From IMG/VR virus record IMGVR_UViG_2740892443_000002: DNA of 22,057 nt; one strand, 5' to 3'. The notes beneath the pieces were generated by a model. The model was not told the DNA's origin. It saw only the letters and a program-made list of their open reading frames with translations, and did no database searches. A program made the translations under genes and the position numbers. This document shows, piece by piece, positions 1,411 to 16,867 of the stretch. The stretch's first letter is position 1, and each line of letters begins with the position of its first letter. The DNA is from a virus. Taxonomy: Duplodnaviria > Heunggongvirae > Uroviricota > Caudoviricetes.

Positions 1411-1425
1411 AGTTTCCTCCCGGTA

Positions 1426-1995
1426 TTACCTAACGTACTTAATTGTTAAACTTATAATTTTTCCAATTATTTCAACATCTTCTATCTTGCACTCGAAGGA
1501 TCTGTTTCCACCTTCAACGAAGATTCTTCCACCGGGTAAACGAGTAATGTCGCGGATTGTTATTTCGCCATCAATACTTATTACCCATTTACCATCACGT
1601 ATATCATCAAATTCTTTATCACAAATAAATTCAGAATTGTTATCTGTGATGACAAAAGGTTTTTTAAACGTAGAGGGTAGAAATCCCTTATCAAAAATAT
1701 AAAAACCGTCTTCACGCAAGGCACCATCAGATAATACATATTTAGCAACTTCCATCGTATTTGTATTACCTGAAGTTTGCTTTGAACCATGTCCAGTTGT
1801 GAGCCAATTAAGCGAGGTGCCCGTTTCAAGGGCGCACTGGATTACCCATTCTGCTGGGAATGAGTCACGCATGTAGCGTGTAGCGAGTGTACTTTTAGAG
1901 ATTCCTAAATGATCGCACAACGCCTGTCGAGTTTTGAATCCATAAGCTTCTACCATGCGCTCTATAGCGCCTCGTCCGCCTTTCTCCAAATTCAT
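1426..1995 (-). CDS. cI: 186-type CI immunity repressor (189 aa from ATG at 1993-1995; a GTG two codons upstream is an alternative start)
   Basis: Translation (…ERMVEAYGFKTRQALCDHLGISKSTLATRYMRDSFPAEWVIQCALETGTSLNWLTTGHG…) closely parallels the remembered phage 186 CI sequence (…DRICEAYGFSQKIQLANHFDIASSSLSNRYTRGAISYDFAAHCALETGANLQWLLTGEG…) and is the same length class (~190 aa). GGAG precedes the ATG on the minus strand. Confidence 0.85.
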   Translation of the reverse strand: MNLEKGGRGAIERMVEAYGFKTRQALCDHLGISKSTLATRYMRDSFPAEWVIQCALETGTSLNWLTTGHGSKQTSGNTNTMEVAKYVLSDGALREDGFYIFDKGFLPSTFKKPFVITDNNSEFICDKEFDDIRDGKWVISIDGEITIRDITRLPGGRIFVEGGNRSFECKIEDVEIIGKIISLTIKYVR

Positions 1996-2019
1996 GGTCA
2001 CTCCAAGTGAACTTTTATC

Positions 2020-2048
2020 TTGACGATTTCATAGTGCGATCGTATGTT
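2020..2048 (+). promoter_or_regulatory. Candidate rightward lytic promoter (pR-like): -35 TTGACG (2020-2025), 17-bp spacer, -10 TATGTT (2043-2048)
   Basis: Read directly in the cI-apl intergenic region; spacing and hexamers fit sigma-70. Orientation toward apl/cII fits the 186 switch. No operator sites could be assigned. Confidence 0.4.
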
Positions 2049-2120
2049 TATGGTGTTCACAAAATACAAACGATCCGTATTCGTCCTGATTAATCATCAT
2101 TAAACGAGGAATGTTGCATC

Positions 2121-2342
2121 ATGAGACCTAACATTTCAATCACTCTTACCACGCCTCATGTGACTATTGAACGCTATAGCGAGCTGACAGGACTGTCCAT
2201 CGATACCATCAATGACATGTTGGCTGATGGACGCCTTATCCGTCACCGTTTGCGCAAAGATAAAAAACGCGAAAAAGTGATGATCAACATAGCAGCCATG
2301 ACCGTTGATGCGCTTTCAGAATGCAATCTAAACCTTAATTAG
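2121..2342 (+). CDS. apl: Apl/Cox-like small DNA-binding protein (excisionase and switch regulator), 73 aa
   Basis: First gene transcribed divergently from cI, immediately upstream of cII, as in phage 186; small basic protein with HTH-like segment ([21 protein letters not shown]). GAGGA precedes ATG at 2121. Assignment by position and size, not by remembered sequence. Confidence 0.65.
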
Positions 2343-2374
2343 TTCGATTCTGAAATACATCAGAGGCATTGACC

Positions 2375-2884
2375 ATGTTTGATTACCAAGTTTCCAAACA
2401 TCCACATTTTGATGAAGCCTGTCGTGCATTTGCACTGCGCCACAATCTGGTGCAACTGGCAGAACGTGCAGGCATGAATGTGCAGATTCTGCGGAACAAG
2501 CTGAACCCAGCTCAGCCTCATTTATTAACCGCACCAGAAATCTGGCTGCTTACCGATCTGACTGAAGATTCAACGCTGGTAGATGGTTTTCTGGCACAGA
2601 TTCACTGCCTGCCATGTGTACCGATTAATGAGGTTGCAAAAGAGAAACTGCCGCATTACGTCATGAGCGCAACTGCAGAGATCGGACGTGTTGCAGCAGG
2701 TGCGGTATCTGGTGATGTAAAAACTAGTGCCGGTCGTCGTGATGCTATCAGCAGCATTAACTCTGTAACACGACTGATGGCGCTGGCTGCTGTTTCATTG
2801 CAGGCCCGTTTACAGGCTAATCCTGCGATGGCGAGTGCAGTTGATACCGTGATTGGCCTCGGTGCTTCATTCGGTTTGCTGTGA
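2375..2884 (+). CDS. cII: 186-type CII lysogeny-establishment activator (169 aa from ATG at 2375)
   Basis: Translation [24 protein letters not shown]...[25 protein letters not shown]... is near-identical in pattern to remembered 186 CII ([24 protein letters not shown]...), same length (169 aa). Confidence 0.85.
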
Positions 2885-2891
2885 GGTGCTT

Positions 2892-3092
2892 ATGCTGACG
2901 AAAGAACCATCATTTGCATCGCTGCTGGTAAAACAAAGCCCGGCAATGCACTACGGTCACGGCTGGATCATGGGTGAGGATGGTAAACGCTGGCATCCGT
3001 GCCGTTCACAAGATGAATTGCTGGCAGAACTATCTACGAAAAAACGGGGGAACAAATGGCTATTGAAGGCGCTGCGGCGACTGTTCCATTAA
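2892..3092 (+). CDS. Hypothetical early protein (66 aa)
   Basis: ATG at 2892 preceded by GAGGTG; sits where 186 carries fil/dhr-type small early genes, but no sequence-level recognition. Confidence 0.4.
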   Translation: MLTKEPSFASLLVKQSPAMHYGHGWIMGEDGKRWHPCRSQDELLAELSTKKRGNKWLLKALRRLFH

Positions 3093-3397
3093 GCCCCGGT
3101 GAACGCCTGAATGGACTTAATCACATAGCGGAATTAAGGGCAAAAGTTTTTGGCCTGAATATTGAGTCAGAGCTTGAGCGGTTTATTAAAGATATGCGTG
3201 ATCCACGGGATATCAATAACGAACAAAATAAACGAGCACTGGCAGCCATATTCTTTATGGCAAAAATTCCGGCTGAACGTCATAGCATCAGCATCAATGA
3301 GCTGACCACTGACGAAAAGCGGGAGTTGATTAAAGCAATGAATCATTTTCGTGCAGTGGTGAGCTTATTTCCCAGACGGCTAACCATGCCGAATTAA
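3056..3397 (+). CDS. Hypothetical early protein (113 aa)
   Basis: ORF with upstream GGGG purine tract, overlaps the previous ORF by 37 nt in another frame; same strand as the early operon. Function unknown. Confidence 0.45.
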   Translation: MAIEGAAATVPLSPGERLNGLNHIAELRAKVFGLNIESELERFIKDMRDPRDINNEQNKRALAAIFFMAKIPAERHSISINELTTDEKRELIKAMNHFRAVVSLFPRRLTMPN

Positions 3398-3464
3398 CCA
3401 ACTAATGAAATTAATGGCGTAAACCCGCCGAGCATCCCTTTATCTAAATTCAGGAGAATTGATT

Positions 3465-3698
3465 ATGCGTAATATTGAGATCCTCACGACTAAAACCGGA
3501 TCGGATGATGCAGGGCTTAATATTTTACTGACAGTGGCTCGTCTGGAAGAACGCCGGGCAAGGGCTGAAGCAATGGCAGCTCGCCTTGATAGCCTGGCGT
3601 GTCATATCTCATCCCGTCAGCTAAACCACGTGGAAGCAGCAGAACTACTGCGTGTAACTGCTGAAGCAATCCAGAACGAAGCGCAGGAGATCCACTAA
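3465..3698 (+). CDS. Hypothetical early protein (77 aa from ATG at 3465)
   Basis: AGGAG at 3453-3457 with 7-nt spacing to ATG 3465; the ORF-track start at 3459 is a TTG. Stop overlaps the next gene start (TAATG). Confidence 0.5.
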   Translation: MRNIEILTTKTGSDDAGLNILLTVARLEERRARAEAMAARLDSLACHISSRQLNHVEAAELLRVTAEAIQNEAQEIH

Positions 3699-3925
3699 TG
3701 GCTGATGCAATGGATCTCGTACAGCAGCGCGTTGAAGAAGAACGCCAGCGCCATATTCGTGCTGCCCGTGCCAAAACACCGGGCGTGTCTCGCGTGCTTT
3801 GTATTGAATGTGAAGCGCCAATTCCGCCAGCACGACGCCGCGCCATTCCGGGAGTGCAGCTTTGCATTACCTGCCAGGAAATCGCAGAGCTGAAAGACAA
3901 ACATTACAACGGAGGTGCTGTATGA
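3698..3925 (+). CDS. TraR/DksA-family C4 zinc-finger protein (75 aa)
   Basis: C-x2-C-x17-C-x2-C (CIECEAPIPPARRRAIPGVQLCITC) in a ~75 aa protein is the TraR/DksA zinc-finger signature, common in P2-like early operons. Translationally coupled to neighbours. Confidence 0.7.
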   Translation: MADAMDLVQQRVEEERQRHIRAARAKTPGVSRVLCIECEAPIPPARRRAIPGVQLCITCQEIAELKDKHYNGGAV

Positions 3926-4779
3926 GCACCATCCTGAAATGGGCGGGAAATAAAACCGCCATTATGTCCGAACTGAAAAAACACCTTCCTGCTGGCCCGC
4001 GACTGGTTGAACCTTTCGCGGGTTCCTGTGCTGTGATGATGGAGACGGATTACCCCAGCTATCTGGTTGCGGATATTAATCCTGATTTAATCAACCTCTA
4101 TAAAAAGGTTGCCGCTGATTGTGAATCGTTTATATCTCGCGCCAGAGTTTTATTTGAGATCGCAAACAGGGAGGTGGCTTATTACAACATAAGGCAGGAG
4201 TTTAATTACTCCACTGAAATTACTGATTTCATGAAAGCGGTATATTTCCTGTATCTCAATCGTCACGGTTACCGTGGTTTATGTCGCTATAACAAGAGCG
4301 GGCATTTCAACATTCCCTACGGTAATTATAAAAATCCGTATTTCCCTGAAAAAGAAATTCGCGCATTTGCAGAAAAGGCCCAGCGAGCAACGTTTATCTG
4401 CGCCAGCTTTGATGAAACGCTGGCGATGTTGAAGGCGGGGGATGTGGTGTATTGCGATCCGCCGTATGACGGTACGTTTTCCGGCTATCACACTGACGGC
4501 TTCACTGAAGATGACCAGTATCACCTGGCATCTGTTCTTGAACATCGGTCATCAGAAGGACATCCGGTCATTGTTTCTAACAGTGACACATCCCTGATCC
4601 GTTCGCTGTATCGCAATTTTACTCACCACTACATCAAGGCAAAACGCAGCATCGGTGTGGCAGCTGGCGAGGGTAAATCAGCAACAGAAATCATTGCTGT
4701 TTCCGGGCCGCGCTGCTGGGTGGGATTTGATTATTCGCGTGGCGTGGATAGTTCTGCCGTGTACGGAGTACGTGCATGA
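3922..4779 (+). CDS. dam: DNA N6-adenine methyltransferase, Dam family (285 aa from ATG at 3922)
   Basis: N-terminal LKWAGNK and FAGSCAV (AdoMet-binding motif I region) and catalytic DPPY ([10 protein letters not shown]) motifs read in the translation. ATGA overlap with both upstream and downstream genes. Confidence 0.85.
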
Positions 4780-7190
4780 GTCATGCCGATATGAACAACT
4801 GCTGCGGCTTTAACGAGGCTGCCGCAGCATTCTCATGGAACAGCCCGAAAAAGGCCATTAACCCTTATCTGGACCCGGCGGAAGTTGCGCCGGTTTCTAC
4901 GCTTTCAAACCTGATCACTCTGTACGCTGCCGATAACGAGCAGGAACAGTTGCGCCGCGAGACACTGAGTGATCAGGTCTGGGAGCGTTATTTCTTTAAT
5001 GAATCACGTGATCCTGTCCAGCGCGAAATGGAGCAGGATAAGCTCATTAGCCGGGCAAAGCTGGCGCATGAGCAGCAGCGTTTTAATTCAGACATGGTCA
5101 TTCTGGCGGACGTCAACGCCAAGCCTTCCCATATCAGCAAGCCGCTGATGCAACGTATTGAATACTTCAGCAGCCTGGGCAGGCCAAAGGCTTATTCCCG
5201 CTATTTACGTGAGACGATTAAGCCATGTCTGGAACGACTGGAGCATGTACGCGACAGTCAGCTATCTGCATCTTTTCGCTTTATGGCAAGCCATGAAGGG
5301 CTGGACGGCCTGCTGATCCTGCCTGAAATGAGTCAGGATCAGGTGAAACGCCTGTCCACCCTGGTAGCTGCGCATATGAGTATGTGCCTTGATGCAGCTT
5401 GTGGTGATTTGTATGCCACCGATGACGTTAAGCCAGAAGAAATCCGCAAGACATGGGAAAAGGTGGCAGCGGAAACCCTGCGTCTGGATGTCATCCCACC
5501 TGCGTTTGAGCAACTCCGTCGGAAAAGAAACCGCCGTAAACCCGTGCCCTATGAACTCATTCCGGGTTCGCTGGCGCGTATGTTGTGCGCCGACTGGTGG
5601 TATCGGAAATTATGGAAGATGCGTTGCGAATGGCGGGAAGAGCAGTTGCGCGCTGTTTGCCTGGTCAGCAAAAAAGCATCTCCTTATGTCAGCTATGAAG
5701 CCGTGATGCATAAACGTGAGCAGCGCCGTAAGTCGCTGGAGTTTTTCCGTTCTCATGAACTGGTGAACGAAGACGGCGACACGCTGGACATGGAGGATGT
5801 GGTAAACGCCAGCAGCAGCAACCCTGCGCATCGCCGCAATGAGATGATGGCCTGTGTTAAAGGTCTGGAGCTTATCGCGGAAATGCGCGGTGACTGCGCC
5901 GTTTTCTACACTATCACCTGTCCGTCGCGTTTCCATTCCACGCTAAATAACGGCAGACCAAACCCGACCTGGACAAACGCGACGGTAAGACAAAGCAGCG
6001 ATTATCTGGTCGGCATGTTTGCTGCATTTCGTAAGGCGATGCACAAAGCCGGGTTGCGCTGGTATGGCGTGCGGGTGGCTGAGCCGCATCATGATGGCAC
6101 AGTTCACTGGCACCTGTTGTGTTTCATGCGCAAAAAAGACCGCCGTGCCATCACTGCATTACTGCGTAAGTTTGCCATCCGTGAAGACCGCGAGGAGCTG
6201 GGCAATAACACTGGGCCGCGCTTTAAGTCTGAGTTGATTAACCCGCGCAAAGGAACGCCGACAAGCTACATCGCGAAATATATCAGTAAGAACATTGACG
6301 GTCGTGGTCTGGCTGGCGAGATCAGCAAGGAAACGGGTAAATCTCTGCGTGATAACGCTGAATACGTGAATGCCTGGGCGTCTCTGCATCGTGTTCAGCA
6401 ATTCCGCTTCTTTGGTATTCCGGGGCGTCAGGCTTACCGTGAACTTCGCTTGCTGGCTGGTCAGGCGGCAAGGCAACAGGGTGACAAAAAAGCAGGTGCG
6501 CCGGTACTGGATAACCCGCGTCTTGATGCCATTCTGGCTGCTGCTGATGCTGGTTGTTTTGCCACCTACATCATGAAGCAGGGCGGCGTACTGGTTCCCC
6601 GTAAATATCACCTCATCAGAACCGCTTATGAAATCAACGAAGAGCCGACCGCCTATGGCGATCACGGCATTCGTATTTATGGCATCTGGTCACCCATTGC
6701 AGAGGGCAAGATCTGCACTCATGCAGTGAAGTGGAAAATGGTTCGTAAAGCCGTTGACGTTCAGGAGGCGGCAGCCGACCAGGGCGCTTGCGCCCCTTGG
6801 ACTCGTGGCAATAACTGTCCCCTTGCTGAAAATTTGAACCAACAGGAGAAAGATAAATCAGCAGATGGGGATACCAGAACTGATATTACCTGCATGGATG
6901 ACAAGGAATTGCACGATTACCTGCACAATATGAGCAAAAAAGAGCGCCGGGAACTGGCAGCAAGATTACGCCTGGTTAAACCGAAACGGCGTAAAGACTA
7001 CAAACAGCGAATTACAGAGCATCAGCGTCAGCAGCTCGTCTATGAACTGAAGTCCAGAGGATTTGATGGCAGCGAGAAAGAGGTCGATTTGCTCCTTCGC
7101 GGTGGCAGTATTCCGTCAGGAGCAGGCCTGCGTATCTTCTATCGGAACCAGCGTTTGCAGGAAGATGATAAGTGGCGGAACCTGTATTAA
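4776..7190 (+). CDS. A: Rolling-circle replication initiator, P2 gpA family (804 aa)
   Basis: Large protein at the position of P2/186 gene A, with a paired-tyrosine motif YIAKYISK (nt 6265-6288; Y-x3-Y) as in P2 gpA / phiX174 gpA-type nicking endonucleases. Confidence 0.85.
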
Positions 7191-7282
7191 TTACGCGGGT
7201 TAACAATTCGTGCTCTTAATAATACCAGGCATATCAGGCTGATGAACGTAAAAAAACGTTTTACATCAGTAAGATTATTATA

Positions 7283-7302
7283 TACTGTAAATATAAACAG
7301 TG
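7283..7302. promoter_or_regulatory. LexA (SOS) box: TACTGTAAATATAAACAGTG (CTGT-N8-ACAG)
   Basis: Exact CTGT-N8-ACAG with AT-rich spacer, read at 7285-7300; overlaps a possible promoter (-35 TTTACA 7260-7265, 17-bp spacer, -10 TACTGT 7283-7288) about 45 bp upstream of the ORF at 7344. Confidence 0.6.
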
Positions 7303-7343
7303 TTTGTGCATACAGTATTGCTTGTGGTGTCATAGGAGGAAAG

Positions 7344-7532
7344 ATGCAGGACTATTTTTTGGAGTCTTTGAAGCTCCAGCGCATTGATTTTTTTCTTAAG
7401 CTTGTAGCGGCTAGTGAGTGTAGTGATGAAGAGAAGGGGCTGGCTCTGCAGTGGGTTTCTGAATTGACTGATGAACTCATGGCAAAAATCAGAAGCCACG
7501 AATACAACCGCTCAATGGATGTCATCAGCTGA
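7344..7532 (+). CDS. Small protein (62 aa) downstream of the LexA box; possibly the 5' part of a split tum-like antirepressor gene
   Basis: ATG at 7344 preceded by AGGAGG. The longer ORF-track start at 7242 would run through the LexA box and is rejected. Relationship to 186 tum is inferred from position and from the adjacent DinI-like gene. Confidence 0.5.
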   Translation: MQDYFLESLKLQRIDFFLKLVAASECSDEEKGLALQWVSELTDELMAKIRSHEYNRSMDVIS

Positions 7533-7542
7533 GGTGACTTTT

Positions 7543-7776
7543 ATGCGCATTGAAATAATGATCGATAAAGAGCAGAAGATTAGCCAGTCTACCCTGGACG
7601 CTCTGGAGTCCGAGCTTTACCGCAACCTGCAACCCATCTATCCCAAGACAGCTATCCGCATCCGTAAAGGGTCGGCAAACGGCGTTGAGCTGAGTGGCTT
7701 AAAGCTTGATGAAGACAAAACGCGGGTGATGGAAATTATGCAGCAGGTTTGGGAAGACGACAGCTGGCTGCACTAA
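7543..7776 (+). CDS. DinI-family protein (77 aa from ATG at 7543)
   Basis: Translation MRIEIMIDKEQKISQSTLDALESELYRNLQPIYPK...DEDKTRVMEIMQQVWEDDSWL aligns along its length with remembered E. coli DinI (MRIEVTIAK...AIDALAGELSRRIQYAFPD...KEDKQRISEILQETWESADDWF). GAGGTG at 7531-7536 precedes the ATG. Confidence 0.85.
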   Translation: MRIEIMIDKEQKISQSTLDALESELYRNLQPIYPKTAIRIRKGSANGVELSGLKLDEDKTRVMEIMQQVWEDDSWLH

Positions 7777-7849
7777 GGAACGTTCCTGATGTAAGAACTT
7801 GATTCTGACGTCAGCAAGGTTGAACAACGAGAGTAGCGAGGCGTTAGCC

Positions 7850-8110
7850 ATGGGTAAAAAAGACAGTAATCACCAGATTATTTATCGGGGCCAGGTGCTG
7901 GAACGGTTTACCCCTGGCGGCTGGGTCTTCTTTCAACGCCCAAAGGAGTGTGGCGGAGGTTTTTGGTTGGGCCGCACCTATGAAGACTGCTTCTGGCTTG
8001 AGCTGGAATTCCCCGTTTCGCTATATGACGGCCTGGAGTTTTTGATGGAAGTCACCAGGGTAGAGCAGAGAAGTGATGAGGTTGACGCGAATTATTCCCT
8101 GTTTGATTAA
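7850..8110 (+). CDS. Hypothetical protein (86 aa from ATG at 7850)
   Basis: GAGG at 7838-7841 about 8 nt before ATG 7850; ORF-track start at 7799 is TTG. No recognisable family. Confidence 0.45.
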   Translation: MGKKDSNHQIIYRGQVLERFTPGGWVFFQRPKECGGGFWLGRTYEDCFWLELEFPVSLYDGLEFLMEVTRVEQRSDEVDANYSLFD

Positions 8111-8158
8111 AAATGTATTAGCTTATAATGGAATACTATTTTTGCAGGTGGGGGCGCA

Positions 8159-8770
8159 ATGGATTTAGTCTTTAAAATTCTGGCTTCGTTGGGTGGGGTG
8201 TCTTTTGTTGCATCTGGCATATTTGTTTGGATCGGGAAAGTTTATTTAGAAAGATATAAGTCGCGGCTAAACAAAGATATTGCTGAATTTCAATCACAAC
8301 TGAGTGCAACTAATGAAAGAATAAAGGCTAAGTTAGACAATTCTGTTTATGTAACGAAAGCGTATTTTGATAAGGAGTTATCAGCATATAGTCTCATTTG
8401 GAATTCGATGTTTGAAACCAGAGAAAGCGTGCTTAAGCTGAGGCCTGCGCTGGATCATTTTGACCCCAACGAACCATTTGAAGAGAGAAAATTTAGAAGG
8501 TTGAAAGTTTTTTTCGATGCATTTAATACTTTTGTTACAAGTGTTGAGTCTAACAAACCGTTCATCTCACCAGAGGTTTATATAATCTTGGACCGTTTCC
8601 GGAAGGAATGCTTTTCAGAGTCAATATCGTTTCAGCATGGCGATCCAGAATTTGACTGGCAAAATTATTGGAAAGAGGCAGAGTTGAATCGTACAACCAT
8701 CATCAAGCTTTTTGATGAGACGTGTGATGCAATTCGAGACAGGATGCACACATTAACTGTGGTTACGTAG
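8159..8770 (+). CDS. Membrane-anchored protein (203 aa): one N-terminal transmembrane helix, coiled-coil-like segment, C-terminal domain of unknown function; cargo gene, candidate defence function
   Basis: Hydrophobic stretch ILASLGGVSFVASGIFVWIG near the N-terminus; AT-rich codon usage unlike the flanking prophage genes; own -10 TATAAT at 8124-8129 and a downstream hairpin terminator at 8862-8889. Confidence 0.7.
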   Translation: MDLVFKILASLGGVSFVASGIFVWIGKVYLERYKSRLNKDIAEFQSQLSATNERIKAKLDNSVYVTKAYFDKELSAYSLIWNSMFETRESVLKLRPALDHFDPNEPFEERKFRRLKVFFDAFNTFVTSVESNKPFISPEVYIILDRFRKECFSESISFQHGDPEFDWQNYWKEAELNRTTIIKLFDETCDAIRDRMHTLTVVT

Positions 8771-8861
8771 TTTTCCAAAAAGTCTCGATGCCCGCTTTGG
8801 CGATTGTGCATGTCTATGCCGCATGAATCCGCATGATCGTTTGAGGATCGTTTTAGCTGAG

Positions 8862-8889
8862 GCCCGCTAGGAATGGCGGGCTTTTGCTT
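8862..8889 (+). terminator. Intrinsic terminator candidate: GCCCGC-TAGGAATG-GCGGGC followed by TTTTGCTT
   Basis: 6-bp GC stem (8862-8867 / 8876-8881), 8-nt loop, T-rich tail 8882-8889; lies about 90 nt downstream of the 8159-8770 gene. Confidence 0.45.
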
Positions 8890-8930
8890 ATGTCATGCAG
8901 ACGCATGAAAACCACTACATAAAGCGGGCA

Positions 8931-8949
8931 GGCGTGGCGGGGATACGAG
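8931..8949 (+). other. cos-like site: GGCGTGGCGGGGATACGAG, resembling the 19-nt cohesive end of P2/186
   Basis: First 13 nt match the remembered 186 cos end GGCGTGGCGGGGA(AAGCAT), and the following GCGCGCT also parallels the remembered P2 left end. Orientation points toward Q as in P2. Remembered sequences are unverified. Confidence 0.45.
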
Positions 8950-9059
8950 CGCGCGCTCATGGTTGAATTAATGAAATTATGGTGTTAAATAGGCTAGCTT
9001 TTTAAGTCGTGAATATTCAATTTTTCAACTCATTTTTTTCATAGGGAGGAGTAATTGAC

Positions 9060-9758
9060 ATGGTTATGTTAGTGGATGACTGTCCACGATGTGGATCACA
9101 AAAAATAGCGTTTGATGTTAATGGGCTGAATTGCACTAGGGTTTACAATGCATTGGGCGGGGGTAAAACATACGAGTACGAGGTCTATTGTGTTTGCCGA
9201 GAGTGTCATAAAACGACAATGTTTCTTTGCAGACCTTTAACGAAAAATAAAACTTTAGATGGCTATAATTGGGAAAGTGGAATATTCGGCTTAAAGGAAG
9301 TTGCAGAGGTTGTTAGGCCTATATCACCGGCAGACTTAGCAGTAGAGGAGCCACCAGAGTTCTTACCTGAGCATATCAATAGTGCATATGAGGAAGGGGC
9401 GAAATGTTTGGCTATAGGTTGTTATAATGCAGCAGCAACCATGTTTAGGCTTTGCCTTGATTATGCCACAAAAGGACTTCTTCCTGATGGGGAGCAAGGG
9501 CCTGCGCAAAAAATAAGGAGAAGCCTAGGGTTAAGAATGGAGTGGTTATTTGATAATCATCTACTGCCTGAAGCTTTAAGGGAACTAGCTGAATGCGTTA
9601 AAGATGACGGAAATGATGGAGCGCATGAAGGTATTTTGGATAAAGCTGCTGCTGAGGATCTTGAAGATTTTACCTATCTTTTTTTAGAACGGCTTTACAC
9701 TGAACCTCAACGCCTTATCGAAGCCAAGACAAGGCGTGAACAAAGAAGAAACAAATAA
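9060..9758 (+). CDS. Zinc-ribbon protein with DUF4145/HEPN-like C-terminal domain (232 aa); cargo gene between cos and portal, candidate defence/abortive-infection effector
   Basis: N-terminal CPRCG...CVCRECH (C4 ribbon); C-terminal helical region ending ...LRELAECVKDDGNDGAHEG... resembles the GN-x-AH core that I recall for DUF4145. GGGAGGAG precedes the ATG; candidate promoter -35 TTGAAT 8963-8968 with TG-extended -10 TAAATA 8986-8991. AT-rich. Stop is 8 bp from the convergent Q stop. Confidence 0.7.
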   Translation: MVMLVDDCPRCGSQKIAFDVNGLNCTRVYNALGGGKTYEYEVYCVCRECHKTTMFLCRPLTKNKTLDGYNWESGIFGLKEVAEVVRPISPADLAVEEPPEFLPEHINSAYEEGAKCLAIGCYNAAATMFRLCLDYATKGLLPDGEQGPAQKIRRSLGLRMEWLFDNHLLPEALRELAECVKDDGNDGAHEGILDKAAAEDLEDFTYLFLERLYTEPQRLIEAKTRREQRRNK

Positions 9759-9766
9759 GTTCGGAA

Positions 9767-10801
9767 TTATTCTTCTGAAAGAATATAGGGCGTAAATTTA
9801 ATCACTTCTTCGCCCAGCCAGTCGTTCAGCTCTTGTAGCCTTTTTTGCAAGGGCGTTAATTCATTACGTACAAATACGCGACTGGCCTTCTCCACATCCC
9901 CAAACCCCCCGACATTATTAGGCATTATCCCCATCATTTGTGGCGGCACACGATGCGCCGCCATCATGTCGTCCCGGCTCACGTTCTTGATATTCAGGAA
10001 CTCATCCTTCGCCGCCACTTCTGACAACGGGATAATCTGAAGCCCGTCCTTTTTACCGTTAGGCGAGTACATAAACAGGTTACGGAAGTTACCAGGACCT
10101 TTGGCGCTTTTCATCGCATTGCGGAGGTTGTTCACATCTTCCTGGTTCTGCGCTGCATCGGTCATGTACATGATGAAGCCTGCATGACTGCCGTTAATGT
10201 AATACTTGCGGCGGAACAGCGTGGCGGACTCGTTGAGCAGAGCTGACGGAATGGCAGAAAGATAACCAGGCAGGCCGTAGATCTCCTGGTTGATGTCCGG
10301 TTCCATCAGATGAAAAATGTTGCATTTCGTGAACTGATACGGCTGCGTAGTCATGCCGTATTGCACAAACCAGTAGGTATCAAGGTCTAACCCGCGTCGG
10401 GTGTATTTTGCCAGTGCAGGCTCAAGGGCGATAACTTCACCGAAGCGGTTCGTGCGTTTCTCCAGGTAGGCGTTACCAAAAACCAGATAGTCCTGTACAA
10501 AACGCGAAAAAGCCTGCTGGCTGAGCAGCGGGTGAGGGATGTAGGTGCTGGTCAGAATGTTGCACTTCACTGCAATCGGTGAGCTGTGATGCACGGCGGC
10601 GCGGAAGGTTCGCGCCAGTCCGTCGAAACTCACAGGCGGCTCGTACCAACGATCCATCTGTACGCATTCCACATAGTCCAGCAGTTCGCGGCGGTCCAGA
10701 ACAGGAACGGGATCACCGAAGCTGAATGCTTCGGCTGAAGTCTGGCTTTTATGCTGGATCTGTTTCGTCGACGCAGCGCGGTTCTTCTTACTCTTTCCCA
10801 T
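9767..10801 (-). CDS. Q: Portal protein, P2 gpQ family (344 aa from ATG at 10799-10801)
   Basis: Size identical to P2 Q (344 aa), position and orientation next to cos and the large terminase gene as in P2; start overlaps the P stop (TGATG). Confidence 0.85.
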   Translation of the reverse strand: MGKSKKNRAASTKQIQHKSQTSAEAFSFGDPVPVLDRRELLDYVECVQMDRWYEPPVSFDGLARTFRAAVHHSSPIAVKCNILTSTYIPHPLLSQQAFSRFVQDYLVFGNAYLEKRTNRFGEVIALEPALAKYTRRGLDLDTYWFVQYGMTTQPYQFTKCNIFHLMEPDINQEIYGLPGYLSAIPSALLNESATLFRRKYYINGSHAGFIMYMTDAAQNQEDVNNLRNAMKSAKGPGNFRNLFMYSPNGKKDGLQIIPLSEVAAKDEFLNIKNVSRDDMMAAHRVPPQMMGIMPNNVGGFGDVEKASRVFVRNELTPLQKRLQELNDWLGEEVIKFTPYILSEE

Positions 10802-12567
10802 CAAAAAATCTCCACAATATTGCTGGTATTGGCGGACTCGCCCTGCAGCGGTTCGTTAAACAGTGCGTGCATTGTTGCCCAGGCCAGATCGGCATGGCTG
10901 GCTTCTTCGCTGCGGCTGGCTTCATAGGTCGGGCGGTTGCCACTGGCAGTGGTAGCGCGACGGATTGCCATAAATGACTGCGCAATGTCGGTGTGCCCGG
11001 CGTCAAACTCCAGACGGCGGTGGCTGATAATGTCGTAGGCCTTGAGTACCAGGGCGTTTTTAACGTTGGGGTTATAGACAAACTCCCTGACGGCAGGAAA
11101 AAACGCTTTCACGTTCTCGTAAACCCCGTGACCGACGCCGGTCGAGTCGATACCGATATAGGTCACGTTATACTGTTCGGTCAGTTTTTTGATGGCGTCA
11201 GCCTGGGCGCGGAAGTCCATCCCGCGCCACTGGTGACGCTCAAGAATGCGGAACTTACCACCCGGCACGGCTGGCGGAGCCACCACCACGCATCCGGCAC
11301 TGTCGCCGTTCTGCGTACCTTTTGCCGGGTCATAACCGATCCACACTTCGCGCCAGCCAAACGGGCGCAGGGCCAGTGCATGAAAGTCGGTCCAGACTTC
11401 CCAGCTGTCCACCATGCACGCCTGCAGTTCGCTGAGCGGGAACACGGACGCGAGATCGTCCACGAACTCGCACATCAGCAGGTTCTGGTATTCGTCCGGG
11501 CTGTACTCCATGCGCAGCTGGTCGAGGTCGAACAGGTTACAGCCGCCGCGCACCGCATCTTCCACGGTGACTATCTGGCGGTATTGCCCGTCTGCGCACA
11601 GTAGGCCGGGGGCCAGATTGCTGTGGGACAGGTCGATGTCCACCTTGTCAGCTTTGTTGCGTCCACGGTTGAACAGCGCACCGGACCAGAACGGATAAGC
11701 ACTGTGGGTCAGGCTGGATGGCGTGGAAAAATAGGTTTGTCGCCATTTCTTGTGAATAGCCATACCGGAAGCCACTTTGCGCAACTCCTGGAATTTCGGT
11801 ATCCAGAAATATTCATCCAGATACAGGTTGCCGTGGTAACTCTGCGCCGTGCGGGCATTGGTGCCGAGGAAGTAAAGCGTGGCCCCGTTAGGAAGCACCA
11901 TCGGATCGCCTTTCAGCTCCACCTCGACTTCTTTGGCGAAGTCGATGATGTACTGCTTAAAGACGTGAGCCTGTGCCTTACTGGCAGAAAGGAAAATCTG
12001 GTTACGTCCGGTAAGCAGGGCGTCAATCAGGGCTTCACGGGCAAAGTAAAAGGTCGCGCCGATCTGGCGTGACTTCAGCAGGTTGCGGATGCGGTTGGTT
12101 TTTCCGGCTTCCCACCAGTGGCGCTGGTAGTTGAACATGGAGGAATGGAAGATTTCTTCCAGTTTCTCTATCTGTTCATCGGTGAAAACATTCTTTTCCG
12201 GCTGACGGCGCGGGCCTTTGTTGCGGTTGGCGACGTTAGGGTTTAAGTCGGCTTCGTTACCGCCATTGTTAAACTTGCCGATCCGCGCGTGGCGCTCCGA
12301 CTGGCGCGCCAGCAGGTCAATTTCTTTGAAATCTTTCCCTTCTTTGTGCTCCTTCATAATGAGCTGGCAGTAACGTGCGGCGGTGGTGAGCTGCATCTGA
12401 TCCAGCGGCCCATAGTCACCCCACTTGTCGCGTTTCTTCCAGCTGTGAACGGTTGCAACTTTCTCGCCCAGCATTTCAGCAATGCGGGCTACGCGGTATC
12501 CCTGAAAGTACAGCAGCATGGCCTGCCGACGGGGATCGAGATCTGCGGGTGTCAGTGTGGTGTTCAT
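10801..12567 (-). CDS. P: Terminase large (ATPase) subunit, P2 gpP family (588 aa)
   Basis: Size (P2 P is ~590 aa) and position, co-oriented with Q and divergent from O, as in the P2 packaging module. Confidence 0.85.
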   Translation of the reverse strand: MNTTLTPADLDPRRQAMLLYFQGYRVARIAEMLGEKVATVHSWKKRDKWGDYGPLDQMQLTTAARYCQLIMKEHKEGKDFKEIDLLARQSERHARIGKFNNGGNEADLNPNVANRNKGPRRQPEKNVFTDEQIEKLEEIFHSSMFNYQRHWWEAGKTNRIRNLLKSRQIGATFYFAREALIDALLTGRNQIFLSASKAQAHVFKQYIIDFAKEVEVELKGDPMVLPNGATLYFLGTNARTAQSYHGNLYLDEYFWIPKFQELRKVASGMAIHKKWRQTYFSTPSSLTHSAYPFWSGALFNRGRNKADKVDIDLSHSNLAPGLLCADGQYRQIVTVEDAVRGGCNLFDLDQLRMEYSPDEYQNLLMCEFVDDLASVFPLSELQACMVDSWEVWTDFHALALRPFGWREVWIGYDPAKGTQNGDSAGCVVVAPPAVPGGKFRILERHQWRGMDFRAQADAIKKLTEQYNVTYIGIDSTGVGHGVYENVKAFFPAVREFVYNPNVKNALVLKAYDIISHRRLEFDAGHTDIAQSFMAIRRATTASGNRPTYEASRSEEASHADLAWATMHALFNEPLQGESANTSNIVEIF

Positions 12568-12613
12568 GGCACAAACCTACAGCCTTGAATGAAGGCTTTC
12601 CCCGCCTGCGGTT

Positions 12614-12631
12614 TGTGTGGTTGTCGGTACA
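12614..12631 (+). promoter_or_regulatory. TGT-N12-ACA dyad in the P-O divergent intergenic region; candidate Ogr/B-dependent late-promoter activator site
   Basis: TGTGTGGTTGTCGGTACA read at 12614-12631; P2-family late promoters carry a TGT-N12-ACA element about 55 bp upstream of the start site, which here would place a rightward start roughly 30 nt before the O ATG. Confidence 0.4.
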
Positions 12632-12709
12632 AATACCGCGCATTGTTTCACTGCCCCCATCACCGCAACCATAAGGCTCCAGTAAGTTATTTCTAACGGA
12701 GCACGGCTC

Positions 12710-13543
12710 ATGACAGTGAAAGCAAAGCGTTTTCGCATCGGGGTGGAAGGTGCCACCACCGACGGACGCGAAATCCAGCGTGAATGGCTGGAACAGATGG
12801 CAGCCAGCTACAACCCGGCGGTGTATACCGCGCTGATTAACCTTGAGCACATCAAGTCTTATCTCCCGGACAGCACCTTTAACCGTTACGGCAAGGTGAC
12901 GGCGCTGTTTGCTGAAGAAATCACGGAAGGCCCGCTGGCAGGCAAGATGGCGCTGTATGCCGGCGTTGAGCCAACGGAGTCCCTGGTGGAATTGGTGAAA
13001 AAAGGCCAGAAATTATTCACCTCTATGGAAGTCAGCCCGAAGTTTGCTGATACGGGCAAAGCCTACCTGGTCGGCCTGGCTGCCACTGATGACCCTGCCA
13101 GTCTGGGCACTGAAATGCTGACATTCAGCGCCAGTGCAGCCCATAACCCGCTGGCAAACCGCAAGCAGAATCCTGCCAATCTCTTTACCGCTGCAGAGGA
13201 AACGGTGATCGAACTGGAAGAAATCCAGGACGACAAACCGTCCCTGTTTGCCCGCGTCACGGCGCTGTTTACCAAAAAAGAGCAGTCCGATGACGCCCGG
13301 TTCTCTGATGTGCATAAGGCCGTGGAGCTGGTCGCCACTGAGCAGCAGAACCTGAGCGCACGCACCGAAAAATCCCTGTCTGAGCAGGAAGAACGCCTGT
13401 CTGAGCTGGAGACTGCCTTGCAGGCACAGCAAACCGCCTTTAACGAACTGGTGGACAAGCTGAGTCATGAAGACAGCCGCCAGGACTACCGCCAGCGTGC
13501 AACAGGCGGTAACGCCCCCGCTGACACTCTGACCAATTGCTGA
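12710..13543 (+). CDS. O: Capsid scaffolding protein, P2 gpO family (277 aa)
   Basis: Position and size (P2 O ~284 aa) immediately before the major capsid gene; acidic, alanine-rich, coiled-coil-like C-terminal half typical of scaffold proteins. Confidence 0.8.
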   Translation: MTVKAKRFRIGVEGATTDGREIQREWLEQMAASYNPAVYTALINLEHIKSYLPDSTFNRYGKVTALFAEEITEGPLAGKMALYAGVEPTESLVELVKKGQKLFTSMEVSPKFADTGKAYLVGLAATDDPASLGTEMLTFSASAAHNPLANRKQNPANLFTAAEETVIELEEIQDDKPSLFARVTALFTKKEQSDDARFSDVHKAVELVATEQQNLSARTEKSLSEQEERLSELETALQAQQTAFNELVDKLSHEDSRQDYRQRATGGNAPADTLTNC

Positions 13544-13559
13544 TGGAGCACAAAACCCG

Positions 13560-14618
13560 ATGAAGAAGAATACCCGCTTTGCTTTTAACGCTTACCTGCA
13601 GCAGCTGGCGCGTCTGAACGGTGTGGCAGTTGAAGAACTGTCCAGCAAGTTCACCGTGGAGCCGTCTGTACAGCAGACGCTGGAAGACCAGATCCAGCAG
13701 TCCGCCGCTTTCCTGACGCTGATTAACGTCACGCCAGTGACTGAGCAGTCTGGGCAGTTGCTGGGGCTGGGGGTTGGCAGCACCATTGCCGGAACCACTG
13801 ATACCACCGCAAAAGAGCGTGAGCCTGTCGATCCGACGCTGATGGTCGATGTGGAATACAAATGCGAACAGACCAACTTTGACACGGTGCTGACCTACGC
13901 GAAGCTGGACCTGTGGGCGAAGTTTCAGGATTTCCAGGTGCGTATCCGTAACGCCATCGTGAAACGTCAGGCACTGGACCGCATCATGATCGGCTTTAAC
14001 GGCGTGAAGCGTGCGAAAACCTCCAACCGTAGCGAAAACCCGCTGCTGCAGGATGTGAACAAAGGCTGGCTGCAGAAAATCCGTGAGGATGCACCGGATC
14101 ACGTCATGGGCAGCACCACCACGGGCGGTGAAACCACACCGGGCGCGGTGAAAGTCGGGAAAGGTGGCGAATATGCCAACCTGGACGCCGTAGTGATGGA
14201 TGCCGTCAATGAGCTTATCGATGTGGTCTACCAGGACGATGACGATCTGGTGGTGATTTGCGGTCGTGAACTGCTGTCTGACAAGTATTTCCCGCTGGTC
14301 AACAAAGAGCAGGAAAACAGTGAAAAACTGGCTGCCGATATGATCATCAGTCAGAAACGCATGGGTGGCCTGCAGGCGGTGCGTGCGCCGTTCTTCCCGC
14401 CGAATGCGCTGCTGATCACCCGTCTGGATAACCTGTCCATCTACTGGCAGGAAGATACCCGCCGCCGTTCAGTTATCGACAACCCGAAACGTGACCGGAT
14501 TGAAAATTTTGAATCCGTTAACGAAGCCTATGTGGTTGAGGACTATCGCTGCGCTGCACTGGTGGAAAACATCCAGATTGGTGACTTCAGCGCCGCCGCA
14601 GCAGAAACCGGAGCGTAA
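13560..14618 (+). CDS. N: Major capsid protein, P2 gpN family (352 aa)
   Basis: Translation MKKNTRFAFNAYLQQLARLNGVAVEELSSKFTVEPSVQQTLEDQIQQSAAFLTLINVTPV... matches the pattern of remembered P2 gpN (M..ETRFKFNAYLSRVAELNGIDAGDVSKKFTVEPSVTQTL...); size fits. Confidence 0.9.
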   Translation: MKKNTRFAFNAYLQQLARLNGVAVEELSSKFTVEPSVQQTLEDQIQQSAAFLTLINVTPVTEQSGQLLGLGVGSTIAGTTDTTAKEREPVDPTLMVDVEYKCEQTNFDTVLTYAKLDLWAKFQDFQVRIRNAIVKRQALDRIMIGFNGVKRAKTSNRSENPLLQDVNKGWLQKIREDAPDHVMGSTTTGGETTPGAVKVGKGGEYANLDAVVMDAVNELIDVVYQDDDDLVVICGRELLSDKYFPLVNKEQENSEKLAADMIISQKRMGGLQAVRAPFFPPNALLITRLDNLSIYWQEDTRRRSVIDNPKRDRIENFESVNEAYVVEDYRCAALVENIQIGDFSAAAAETGA

Positions 14619-14621
14619 TTC

Positions 14622-15272
14622 ATGAGCCTGAGTCCCGCACGGCAGCATCGCCTGCGCGTTCAGGCTGAACAGGCCGCTCGCGAGGGTGGCAGTGTTCGCC
14701 ACGCGTCGGGCTATGACCTGATGCTGCTGCAACTGGCGGAAGACCGTCGCCGTCTCAAGGGCGTTCAGTCCACGGTAAAAAAAGCGGAAATCAAGGTGGA
14801 GCTGCTGCCGAAATATGCTGCCTGGGCGGAGGGCGTTCTGGCTGCCGGAGGCGCTCAACAGGATGACGTGCTGATGTACGTGATGCTGTGGCGCATTGAT
14901 GCCGGAGATTATGCCGGGGCGCTGGAGATCGGGCGTCATGCCCTGCGTCATGGCTGGGTGATGCCGCTGGGTAACCGCAACGTGCAGACCGTGCTGGCAG
15001 AGGAAATGGCAGACGCGGCGCAGAGCGCAATGCTTGCCGCCACCGGCTTTGATGCCGATCTGTTGCTGCAGACGCTGGAGCTGACAGACGGTCTGGATAT
15101 GCCGGACCAGTCACGGGCGCGTCTGCATAAAGCGATTGGCGCTGTCCTGTGTGAAAGCAACCCGGCTTCCGCCCTTAATCATCTCAACCATGCGTTACAG
15201 CTCGATCCCCGCTGTGGCGTGAAAAAAGACAAACAGCAGCTGGAGCGCAGACTGCGCAATGACAGCCGCTGA
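14622..15272 (+). CDS. M: Terminase small/endonuclease subunit, P2 gpM family (216 aa)
   Basis: Position directly after N and size class fit P2 gene M; start 3 nt after the N stop. Confidence 0.75.
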   Translation: MSLSPARQHRLRVQAEQAAREGGSVRHASGYDLMLLQLAEDRRRLKGVQSTVKKAEIKVELLPKYAAWAEGVLAAGGAQQDDVLMYVMLWRIDAGDYAGALEIGRHALRHGWVMPLGNRNVQTVLAEEMADAAQSAMLAATGFDADLLLQTLELTDGLDMPDQSRARLHKAIGAVLCESNPASALNHLNHALQLDPRCGVKKDKQQLERRLRNDSR

Positions 15273-15367
15273 CAGAACGTGCCCCCGCGCACGGGCGGCA
15301 CGGGGTGGCGAAAGGCACTGCCACATCAACACCCCGTCCACCGCCCTCTATTTCAGGAGAAAGCAGC

Positions 15368-16867
15368 ATGAAGTTTGTTGCGCCAGAACAGGCACCGGAA
15401 CAGGCGGAAATCATCAGAAACACGCCGTTCTGGCCTGATGTGGACCTGTCGGAGTTTCGCAGTGTCATGCGCACTGACGGCACGGTGACGCAGCCGCGTT
15501 TAAAGCAGGTTGCGCTGGCTGCAGTGCTGGGGCCGCTGGCAGTGATCCGTCTGGGATTCTCTGTGCTGGGTATCAAAACGTTATCTTCCGTTACGGCAGC
15601 AGTAACTCGAACCAGCAGCGCGTTGTCCTGGCTGGCTGGCGCACCACTGGCACTGCTGCGACGCGGGCTTGCTTCATCGGGCAACGCCGCAGGTTTACTT
15701 ACTGCGCCGTTGTCGTCTTTGCGCCGCACGGCATCACTGACGGGAAATGTCCTGAAAACTGTAGCAGGTGCGCCGGTTGCACTTTTGCGGTCTGGATTAT
15801 CCGGTTTACGTGCTGTTGCTGTGATGTTTATGAATCCTCTGGCGGTACTGCGCGGTGGACTGGCCGCCGCAGGCACGGTGCTGCGAGTACTGGCATCTGG
15901 TCCACTGGCGATGCTGCGCGTTGCCCTGTATGCCATATCTGGTCTGTTAGGTGCTCTGCTCAGTCCGATAGGTCTTGTGGTTACTGCACTGGCGGGCGTG
16001 GCGCTGGTTGTCTGGAAATACTGGCAACCCATCACCGCATTTCTCGGTGGCGTGGTGGAAGGATTCAAAGCGGCGGCAGGTCCCATCAGTGCAGCGTTCG
16101 AACCGCTTAAGCCCGTGTTCCAGTGGATTGGCGACAAAGTGCAGGCGCTGTGGGGCTGGTTTACTGATCTGCTGACGCCCGTTAAGTCGACCTCTGCCGA
16201 ACTGCAGAGCGCAGCGGCAATGGGGCGGCGATTCGGGGAGGCACTGGCGGAAGGGCTGAATATGGTCATGCATCCGCTGGACTCCCTGAAATCCGGCGTT
16301 TCCTGGTTGCTGGAGAAGCTCGGCATTGTCAGTAAAGAGGCCGCAAAGGCAAAACTGCCGGAAAGCGTGACGCGTCAGCAACCTGCGACGGTGAATGCAG
16401 ACGGTAAAGTGATGATGCCATCGGGTGGTTTTCCATCATGGGGATATGGCTTTGCGGGGATGTATGACAGCGGCGGGTATATCCCGCGCGGGCAGTTTGG
16501 CATCGTCGGTGAAAACGGGCCGGAAATTGTTAACGGCCCGGCAAATGTGACCAGCCGGAGAAATACAGCTGCACTGGCTGCCGTTGTTGCCGGAATGATG
16601 GGCGTTGCTGCCGCGCCAGCAGAGCTTCCACCGTTGCACCCTTTGGCACTTCCCGCGAAAGGTGGAGAAGCAATTGTGAGTCGCGCAGCCACTGTGCCGC
16701 TCGTTCAACGGATTGAGGCACCGACGCAGATCATCATTCAGACGCAGCCAGGACAAAGTGCGCAGGATATTGCGCGGGAGGTGGCACGCCAGCTTGATGA
16801 ACGTGAACGCAGGCTGAAGGCAAAAGCCAGGAGTAACTACAGCGATCAGGGGGGATACGACGCATGA
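15368..16867 (+). pseudogene. In-frame deletion remnant: 5' end of a head-completion (gpL-position) gene fused to the C-terminal part of a tail tape-measure (gpT-like) gene; 499 aa ORF
   Basis: ATG at 15368 with AGGAG at 15355-15359. N-terminal ~45 aa (MKFVAPEQAPEQAEIIRNTPFWPDVDLSEF...) is unlike what follows, which is Ala/Leu/Gly-rich repetitive sequence with a C-terminal ...GYIPRGQFGIVGENGPEIV... segment typical of tape-measure proteins. The ORF sits between M and U, where P2 has about 20 genes (L through T). Confidence 0.6.

Follow-up and report, generated by a model that had tools for sequence, protein, structure and literature searches.

A lysogen-expressed accessory gene in the gpA-cos-gpQ hotspot of a P2-like prophage encodes a predicted single-pass membrane protein with a possible anti-phage role

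The gene and its place in the prophage

We analyzed a cargo gene of a prophage contained in a 22,057-nucleotide (nt) stretch of viral DNA (Caudoviricetes; IMG/VR record IMGVR_UViG_2740892443_000002), which is referred to here, at its full length, as the window. The gene (8159-8770, + strand) is an open reading frame (ORF) that starts with ATG and encodes a predicted single-pass inner-membrane protein of 203 amino acids (aa) that belongs to phrog_26391, for which PHROGs gives no function, and to the WP_053274844 class. A previous reading of the DNA, made from its letters (the original prediction), had described the gene as a self-contained, AT-rich cassette with the promoter-gene-terminator layout of a phage moron, located where P2 carries old and tin, and had suggested abortive infection or superinfection exclusion as its role.

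The gene is in a known defense hotspot. The window holds a P2/186-like prophage of the Peduoviridae that is about 98% identical to phage Cartapus of Escherichia coli LF82: positions 2372-8898 align with Cartapus 26844-33368 (98.2% identity), 8899-15523 with Cartapus 1-6625 (97.0%), and 15508-18667 with Cartapus 19561-22698 (93.8%). The closest chromosome is that of E. coli C2, with 99.9% identity across the cassette region. Genes are arranged in the order gpA (4776-7190), a 62-aa ORF, DinI, an 86-aa ORF (7850-8110), the 203-aa gene, the cohesive end site (cos), and a gene for a zinc-finger and DUF4145 protein (9060-9758), followed on the minus strand by portal gene Q and then terminase gene P. 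The cos region (8899-8957) is defined by alignment and by the Cartapus record, which marks bases 1-59 as putative cos (window position 8899 is Cartapus base 1), and it divides the hotspot into two arms. We take its core, GGCGTGGCGGGGATACGAG at 8931-8949, to resemble the P2 cohesive end. Gene order and the Cartapus alignment confirm the predicted position between gpA and cos: within the gpA-cos-gpQ hotspot, the 203-aa gene occupies the gpA side, as the final gene of the replication arm ahead of cos. This region is the old/tin site of P2, with 1,650 gene arrangements and many defense systems (Rousset et al. 2022, PMC9122126). Table S5 of that study includes the arrangement 'hypothetical + DinI + hypothetical + hypothetical + DUF4145', in which the 203-aa protein is WP_053274844. 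The gene is carried by 52 of 5,426 E. coli genomes, that is, by about 4% of the approximately 1,289 genomes that have the hotspot flanks.

The signals for expression are largely as originally described. The upstream ORF stops with TAA at 8108-8110, and a putative sigma-70 promoter (8103-8129, + strand) consists of a weak -35 hexamer (TTGATT, 8103-8108), a 15-nt spacer, and a perfect -10 hexamer (TATAAT, 8124-8129). The ribosome-binding site, AGGTGGGGG (8146-8154, + strand), is 7 nt 5' of the ATG. TATAAT occurs at chance frequency in this DNA (five copies on the + strand of the 22 kb, versus about five expected), and a consensus scan for promoters and terminators did not call the promoter because of the 15-nt spacing from the only -35-like hexamer. 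The promoter is credible not because of the hexamer alone, but because TATAAT is invariant in an alignment with diverged Enterobacter loci, in which the flanking bases and the ribosome-binding site vary, and because RNA sequencing (RNA-seq) reveals a step in transcript levels at this position (see below).

The terminator appears to be borrowed. An intrinsic-terminator-like hairpin at 8855-8888 (+ strand) is followed by UUUUGCUU, a U-rich tail, and its predicted stability is -22.9 kcal/mol (z = -3.84; none of 200 shuffled sequences was equally stable). It was missed by the consensus scan because greedy extension of the stem through G-U pairs consumed the run of T residues. About 1,289 E. coli genomes share a conserved block (8806-8960), regardless of which cargo they carry, and both the hairpin and the ~35 nt preceding it fall within this block. 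The hairpin noted in the original prediction is therefore present, but it belongs to the cos-proximal backbone and not to the cassette, the variable part of which extends from about 7850 to 8806. The gene itself is AT-rich, as had been noted: its GC content is 38.1%, compared to 49.8% for the upstream ORF and 52-55% for gpA and the portal/terminase (Q/P) and capsid (N) genes. Rfam identified no RNA family in or near the cassette, and a repeat search found nothing meaningful in 7700-9100.

The ORF is real and under purifying selection. The ratio of nonsynonymous to synonymous substitution rates (dN/dS) between the gene and an 83%-identical Enterobacter homolog is 0.12-0.14. The alternative, that AT-rich DNA produced the ORF by chance or that the gene is decaying, might be entertained in view of the annotation, which is either 'hypothetical' or, in records such as NZ_AP022215.1 and NZ_CP019355.1 (hits H25 and H26), 'valyl-tRNA synthetase'. 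The latter label is an error that stems from a coiled-coil match to Pfam Val_tRNA-synt_C that falls short of the threshold (E = 0.0096; 16.6 bits versus a cutoff of 25.9). The substitution rates, the 757 clusters of homologs with full-length matches and invariant residues, the confident structure model, and the transcription of the gene, all described below, have already refuted this alternative, and we assign it a negligible probability.

Transcription in the lysogen and independence from neighboring genes

The gene is an independently transcribed, lysogen-expressed accessory gene, or moron. Published RNA-seq data are available for E. coli LF82, which is not the strain of the window but carries a 99.6%-identical ortholog in Cartapus. 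Positions 8100-8890 of the window match LF82 2759412-2760202 (minus strand), and the 203-aa ORF (2760143-2759532) is exactly LF82_789/CARTA_47, which is listed as one of only two Cartapus morons and is transcribed 7-fold above the prophage median (Misson et al. 2023, Table 1). The original prediction would have been refuted by silence of the gene in lysogens, and the ortholog is clearly transcribed. Expression values, as log2(FPKM+5), where FPKM is fragments per kilobase per million mapped reads, were 5.4 and 5.6 for LF82_789 in stationary phase in lysogeny broth (LB), compared to 3.3 and 3.1 for LF82_790, the ortholog of the upstream 86-aa ORF (Misson et al. 2023, S1 Table). The corresponding values were 7.1 and 7.3 versus 3.3 and 3.6 in condition B1 and 8.6 and 8.5 versus 2.8 and 2.6 in condition B6 (which read as 1 h and 6 h, respectively, in Dulbecco's modified Eagle medium, DMEM), 9.0 versus 4.9 and 5.2 after 1 h in macrophages, and 10.5 versus 7.5 and 7.7 after 6 h in macrophages. 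LF82_789 thus exceeded LF82_790 by 4- to 60-fold across all five conditions, and this step between the two genes indicates that LF82_789 has its own promoter in the 48-nt gap between the ORFs. With its own promoter, a predicted downstream terminator, deviant GC content, and patchy presence among relatives, the gene has the features of a moron, and the published listing and the RNA-seq step together bear out the layout that had been read from the sequence.

While LF82_789 was expressed, gpA, the dam methylase gene, and all late genes, including those for holin and endolysin, were at the detection floor. We considered whether the 203-aa protein might be a lysis or structural protein and rejected this candidate: it has no family match, and its gene is expressed when those for holin and endolysin are at that floor.

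A gene transcribed in this way might nonetheless benefit the phage, for instance by countering defense or by acting as a membrane tether with an influence on induction, replication, or packaging. Its terminal position on the replication arm, next to cos, would fit such a role, and hotspots can also carry counter-defense genes. However, the gene is accessory, being found in only about 4% of the hotspot-bearing E. coli genomes, it is transcribed while gpA, the dam methylase gene, and the late genes are silent, it is retained in the window prophage despite the loss of all tail and lysis genes, and its family is also found in non-phage elements. We consider a phage-benefit role quite unlikely.

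The pattern of induction raises the possibility of lysogenic conversion, in which the protein would serve host physiology, such as envelope or stress adaptation in stationary phase or in macrophages, and would have no direct anti-phage role. Transcription of LF82_789 increased about 30-fold from LB to 6 h in macrophages and was already high in B6 with its SOS-linked neighbors silent, and homologs are found in free-living bacteria and in non-phage contexts. On the other hand, the hotspot is dominated by defense cargo, the family is linked to mobile elements and is patchy (52 of 5,426 E. coli genomes), and the passages on Cartapus in the LF82 CRISPR interference study mention no fitness effect of the gene. 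Overall, we regard lysogenic conversion as an improbable explanation, although it and superinfection exclusion (see below) are the chief alternatives to an abortive-infection role.

The SOS-linked neighbors have recognizable control sites. A perfect LexA box, CTGTAAATATAAACAG, is at 7285-7300 and a second, near-perfect box is at 7300-7315, both 5' of the 62-aa ORF and the DinI gene. These boxes are consistent with the published RNA-seq data, in which LF82_791 and DinI are strongly induced specifically in macrophages; the pattern of the 203-aa gene differs in that its expression is already high in B6.

The 86-aa ORF (7850-8110, + strand; phrog_2100, function not assigned by PHROGs) accompanies the 203-aa gene but is probably dispensable for it. 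The ORF is intact 5' of the gene in 16 E. coli-type IMG/VR loci (92-100% identity). In the aligned Enterobacter loci (L003, L005, and L008) it is a pseudogene, with ATG changed to CTG and a +1 frameshift, and in LF82 it is silent in LB, at background while the 203-aa gene is expressed. The DNA of the Enterobacter pseudogene (~5700-5950 in these three loci) is still about 91% identical to that of the window, closer than the 203-aa gene itself (synonymous divergence, dS, ~0.7-0.8), and this excess of identity suggests either a recombination mosaic or constraint on the upstream DNA.

On the other side of cos, the neighboring cargo gene (9060-9758, + strand) encodes a Cys4 zinc ribbon (C8xxC11...C46xxC49) and a DUF4145 (HEPN-like) domain, as indicated by Pfam (DUF4145, E = 4.5e-7) and by a weakly scoring match to PADLOC PD-T7-4 (E = 1.2e-6, 26 bits). 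RAZR (PD-T7-4) is a single-gene system, a ring-activated RNase that is triggered by phage portal proteins (PMC13017515), and DefensePredictor DS-38 has the same domain pair as the 9060-9758 gene. The gene is RAZR/PD-T7-4-like in architecture but may belong to that family or to another, such as that of DS-38; the weak match does not establish membership in PD-T7-4. The LF82 lysogen likewise expresses its ortholog, LF82_788, with induction in macrophages.

The 203-aa gene appears to be solitary, that is, independent of both the RAZR-like gene and the 86-aa ORF. A two-gene system formed with one or the other would be in keeping with the adjacency of the genes, the parallel rise of LF82_788 and LF82_789 across conditions, and the presence of the 86-aa ORF beside the 203-aa gene in E. 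coli. However, six P2-like prophages have an 83%-identical homolog (P0002) between gpA and cos, each with a different portal-side cargo: an unknown 223-aa protein, AIPR, STM3845 with a reverse transcriptase, AAA_15 with OLD-TOPRIM, AAA_21 with RloB, or SLFN_AlbA_2 with HATPase_c_4. The portal-side gene is thus replaced by at least six unrelated cargos beside the same gene. Nor do the 203-aa gene and the DUF4145 gene form a conserved pair: they are found together in only 4 of 21 P2-like loci from IMG/VR, and the whole 7200-9800 segment is kept in only 25 of the 52 complete E. coli genomes that carry the 203-aa gene. In addition, RAZR itself works as a single gene (PMC13017515), the 86-aa ORF has decayed to a pseudogene in Enterobacter and shows no expression in LB, and the hairpin and cos separate the 203-aa gene from the DUF4145 gene. 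Comparative genomics has largely refuted a two-gene system, which we consider very improbable. The original prediction had argued for separate transcription from the intervening terminator and cos, and independent assortment across prophages is the stronger support for separate action.

Protein family, topology, and fold

The 203-aa protein belongs to a large family without an assigned function. At E <= 0.001, an exhaustive phmmer search of 1.84 billion cluster representatives retrieved 757 clusters (defined at 50% identity) from many phyla; of these, 270 reached E <= 1e-10. Most of the matches listed are ~200-215 aa and align over most of their length. The named sources, which include Dyella, Nitrospira, Corallococcus, Clostridium, Desulfosporosinus, and Methylotenera, annotate every homolog as 'hypothetical'. 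Sequence searches with the protein and 51 homologs against Pfam, NCBIfam, PADLOC, and the PDB gave no family match, only coiled-coil noise (Val_tRNA-synt_C, Apolipoprotein). PADLOC-DB v2 has no family for the protein, with scattered single weak matches among the 51 homologs, and the sole match in a PDB profile search was to ribosomal protein eS17 (E = 0.38), attributable to chance. Homology to a phage structural or lysis protein had been named as grounds for abandoning the original prediction. No structural, lysis (holin, antiholin, spanin), or SieB-type exclusion homology was found in Pfam, NCBIfam, or the functional annotation of PHROGs, and Pfam and PADLOC detected no AAA/TOPRIM domain or relationship to Tin.

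Homologs are associated with many types of mobile elements. The Nitrospira homolog adjoins a DDE transposase and an HsdM fragment, the Corallococcus homolog is in a prophage-like region, and the Desulfosporosinus homolog adjoins a Mu-type transposase and a PemK toxin-antitoxin pair. Among phages, the homolog in Pseudomonas phage Riah adjoins the CI repressor and that in Clostridium phage Maintenon is between the terminase subunits; in a Lactiplantibacillus element the homolog is 3' of the integrase, and further homologs are found among integrases and resolvases. We found no recurrent partner among the 98 immediate neighbors of 28 diverse homologs, the most common being resolvase (3), rve (2), and HNH (2).

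Some enterobacterial homologs (35-49% identity) are directly 3' of int-AlpA in small int-AlpA-...-DUF4222-AAA_25 islands in IMG/VR (L042-L047). Several of these islands are apparently inserted in structural genes of lambdoid prophages, next to a truncated major capsid gene after C/D-like genes (L043 and L044) or a truncated portal gene (L045 and L047). The islands look like satellite-like elements that may target prophage morphogenesis genes.

The protein is predicted to have one transmembrane helix, with its N terminus outside and the bulk of the protein in the cytoplasm. The only hydrophobic stretch comprises residues 7-25 (8177-8233, + strand; Kyte-Doolittle mean over 19 residues, 2.02), and there is none after residue 60. 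The helix contains conserved Gly12/13 and Gly20 and is followed by a conserved W-x-G-K-V-W/Y juxtamembrane motif, and its C-terminal flank is the more positive one in 47 of 51 family members, in agreement with the positive-inside rule for this orientation. AlphaFold2, run with an alignment of 80 sequences, gave a model with a mean predicted local distance difference test score of 84.7, and 85-96 over residues 70-200. In this model, a helix spanning residues 2-92 forms the transmembrane segment and a stalk (residues ~27-65; 8237-8353, + strand; the boundary at ~65 is inferred), and helices 107-131, 138-160, and 167-200 pack with its end into a putatively cytoplasmic four-helix bundle (residues ~66-200; 8354-8758, + strand). 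The stalk varies in length in the family, with insertions in homologs such as P0043, P0063, P0082, and P0132. Hydropathy and the model together match the architecture anticipated in the original prediction, a transmembrane helix followed by a coiled-coil-like region and an unrecognized C-terminal domain.

Conserved residues cluster in the modeled bundle. E73, R95, P134, E154, and R195 are invariant, and F70, W81, P96, F135, I192, and R193 are nearly so. We infer from the order of the helices that the membrane-proximal end of the bundle groups E73, the P134-F135 turn, and R193/R195, and that the R95-P96 loop and E154 are at the distal tip. Structurally, the model is closest to four-helix bundles that bind ligands or peptides, namely the sensor domains of Tar, Tsr, and TorS and the FAT domain.

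The predicted topology bears on superinfection exclusion, in which the protein would stop incoming phages at genome entry or at an early step associated with the membrane and would leave the cell alive, as do T4 Imm, P22 SieA, and HK97 gp15. Like the known exclusion proteins (T4 Imm, P22 SieA and SieB, HK97 gp15, and lactococcal Sie2009), the 203-aa protein is small, prophage-encoded, and made in the lysogen, with a predicted anchor in the inner membrane, and the hotspot also serves competition between phages. It is not homologous to these proteins and matches neither SieB nor other exclusion families. Most of the protein is predicted to lie in the cytoplasm, held on a stalk about 40 residues beneath the membrane, and this placement suits a block of injection at the periplasmic face less well. 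In addition, known exclusion proteins are narrow and phage-specific, whereas this family has a conserved cytoplasmic domain and is broader both in taxonomy, with many phyla, and in the types of mobile elements, some of them non-phage, that carry it. Exclusion therefore seems to us an unlikely role.

The N-terminal part of the protein is found with several different C-terminal domains. A scan for the juxtamembrane motif WLGKVWAxR across 185,579 species genomes yielded 132 confirmed relatives, of which the best 80 (loci L049-L128) were used to compare C termini; the equivalent of the module in the window is 8177-8250. Nearly all of these 80 proteins are 180-280 aa, and they come from many phyla. 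BLAST detects the C-terminal domain of the 203-aa protein in only 22 of the 80, and the family profile aligns over most of its extent with 17. The remaining relatives among the best 80 form at least seven further C-terminal clusters, for at least eight in all. One of these further clusters is a diverged homolog (hhalign, 93.6%), and others are not detectably related (0.2-27%). Pfam identified no domain in 48 proteins with other C-terminal domains, and a search of 5.8 billion proteins with the 60-aa N-terminal module returned only short fragments, with no fusion to a known domain. By these comparisons, the module, comprising the Gly-rich transmembrane helix, WLGKVWAxR, and the start of the stalk, appears to be conserved far beyond the needs of a simple anchor. 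A nearly invariant N terminus with varied C termini is the pattern that would be expected for a fixed output with swappable sensors.

Possible function, known systems, and the rest of the prophage

Our tentative interpretation, which we favor without considering it probable, is that the 203-aa protein on its own acts at the membrane against phages, by a mechanism of the abortive-infection type. We propose this because of the location of the gene in a hotspot, the spread of the family on mobile elements across phyla, the binding-type fold, and the conserved N terminus joined to variable C termini. In the proposed mechanism, the four-helix bundle would be the sensor and would bind a phage-derived protein or ligand. 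The transmembrane and juxtamembrane module, with its Gly-rich face and W-L-G-K-V-W-A-x-R motif, would be the output and would oligomerize and perturb the inner membrane, such that the infected cell would no longer support phage growth. That the protein has a role in either abortive infection or exclusion, as in the original prediction, is plausible from location and architecture alone.

Several observations weigh against an anti-phage function. We found no phage-resistance result for the protein or any homolog. Rousset et al. catalog the locus as 'hypothetical', and the accession was not found in the portion of the tested-systems table available to us (PMC9122126). As described above, neither the protein nor the 51 homologs has a sequence match in PADLOC, Pfam, NCBIfam, or the PDB. 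Only a handful of the 98 neighbors of homologs match PADLOC (type III methyltransferase, type IV restriction endonuclease, PDC-S51, PDC-M37B, PDC-S32, and DolB), and association with defense genes outside the Enterobacteria appears weak. The four-helix bundle, as modeled, is a generic fold, and oligomerization and membrane perturbation are conjecture. Finally, the strong induction in DMEM and in macrophages fits a role in host physiology equally well.

The 203-aa gene works like other morons of the P2 hotspot. As with the cargos described between gpA, cos, and gpQ (old, tin, retrons, AbiF, DUF4238, and 2TM-1TM-TIR, among others; PMC9122126), it is at the same locus, has a foreign base composition, is swapped rapidly between syntenic prophages, and is expressed from the prophage. 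It differs from them in having no sequence relation to Old, Tin, or the validated cargos, and it is confined to the gpA side of cos, assorting independently of the portal-side cargo.

The protein may act like membrane effectors such as Csx28 or RexB, although it is a member of neither family. Csx28, the membrane pore accessory to Cas13b (PDB 8gi1), is a structural match to the model, but it ranks 59th, below many generic four-helix bundles. Unlike Csx28, the 203-aa protein has no HEPN Rx4-6H motif, no conserved histidine, and no CRISPR association, and it appears to be solitary. The membrane effectors of abortive infection, including lambda RexB, those of CBASS, Pycsar, and Thoeris, and the partners in hydrolase-3TM and 2TM-1TM-TIR systems, are likewise small membrane proteins from prophage or defense loci with a presumed action on membrane integrity. 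However, all of these effectors are driven by a separate sensor or signal-generating partner and usually have two to four transmembrane helices, whereas the 203-aa protein lacks a partner and combines one predicted helix with a large, conserved domain in the cytoplasm. The four-helix bundle is common to the model and to Tar/Tsr, TorS, PcaY, the periplasmic domains of histidine kinases, and the FAT domain, with 3-14% identity. Sensors of the 4HB_MCP type are periplasmic and located between two transmembrane helices; in contrast, the bundle of the 203-aa protein is C-terminal and predicted to be cytoplasmic, and it has no match to Pfam 4HB_MCP. RAZR/PD-T7-4, a zinc-finger and DUF4145 HEPN RNase, resembles in architecture only the 9060-9758 gene product and is unrelated to the 203-aa protein (PMC13017515).

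A broader reading, doubtful but worth stating, extends to the whole superfamily. Its members would be single-pass membrane proteins in which a nearly invariant GG...W-L-G-K-V-W-A-x-R membrane output is fused to interchangeable cytoplasmic sensors at the C terminus, the four-helix bundle of the 203-aa protein being one such sensor. They would represent a one-protein sensor-effector immune module disseminated across bacterial phyla on phages, satellites, and transposons.

Earlier publications cover the type of locus and the transcription of the gene. To our knowledge, no description exists of the family to which the protein belongs, of the topology and fold of the protein, of the independence of the gene from its RAZR-like neighbor, or of the modular N-terminal superfamily. 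The P2 cos hotspot is among the richest sources of new anti-phage systems, and most of its validated cargos have recognizable enzymatic domains. The 203-aa protein contrasts with this usual cargo in being a membrane protein with no known domain, encoded by a macrophage-induced moron of a pathobiont prophage. If it does function in defense, it would be among the smallest self-contained membrane sensor-effectors known, and a conserved N-terminal module with swappable C termini would offer a direct way to study the triggering of membrane-acting immunity. Otherwise, the gene would be one for lysogenic conversion in an adherent-invasive E. coli strain, induced in macrophages, and this too would be of interest.

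The prophage in the window is defective. Compared to Cartapus, it lacks about 12.9 kb between a point within head-completion gene L and a point within tape-measure gene T. At the junction (~15508-15523) there is a 16-nt overlap, and an L'-'T fusion ORF of 520 aa (15305-16867) results. The lysis, baseplate, fiber, sheath, and tube genes are all lost, and both hotspot cargo genes are intact.

The ends of the prophage differ from Cartapus or adjoin host DNA. At the left end (1-2371), the genes for integrase (369 aa, reaching the edge of the window) and CI repressor (191 aa) are not the Cartapus alleles: the sole aligned patch is 828-1008, with 70% identity, compared to 94-98% for other parts of the prophage. 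By this comparison, the immunity and integration module has evidently been exchanged relative to Cartapus. At the right end, the gene for the host small RNA RybB (18833-18911, minus strand; 105 bits) lies just past the end of the Cartapus-homologous DNA (~18667), indicating that the prophage is inserted beside rybB. Beyond RybB are a gene for a YbjL-like permease and then YbjM.

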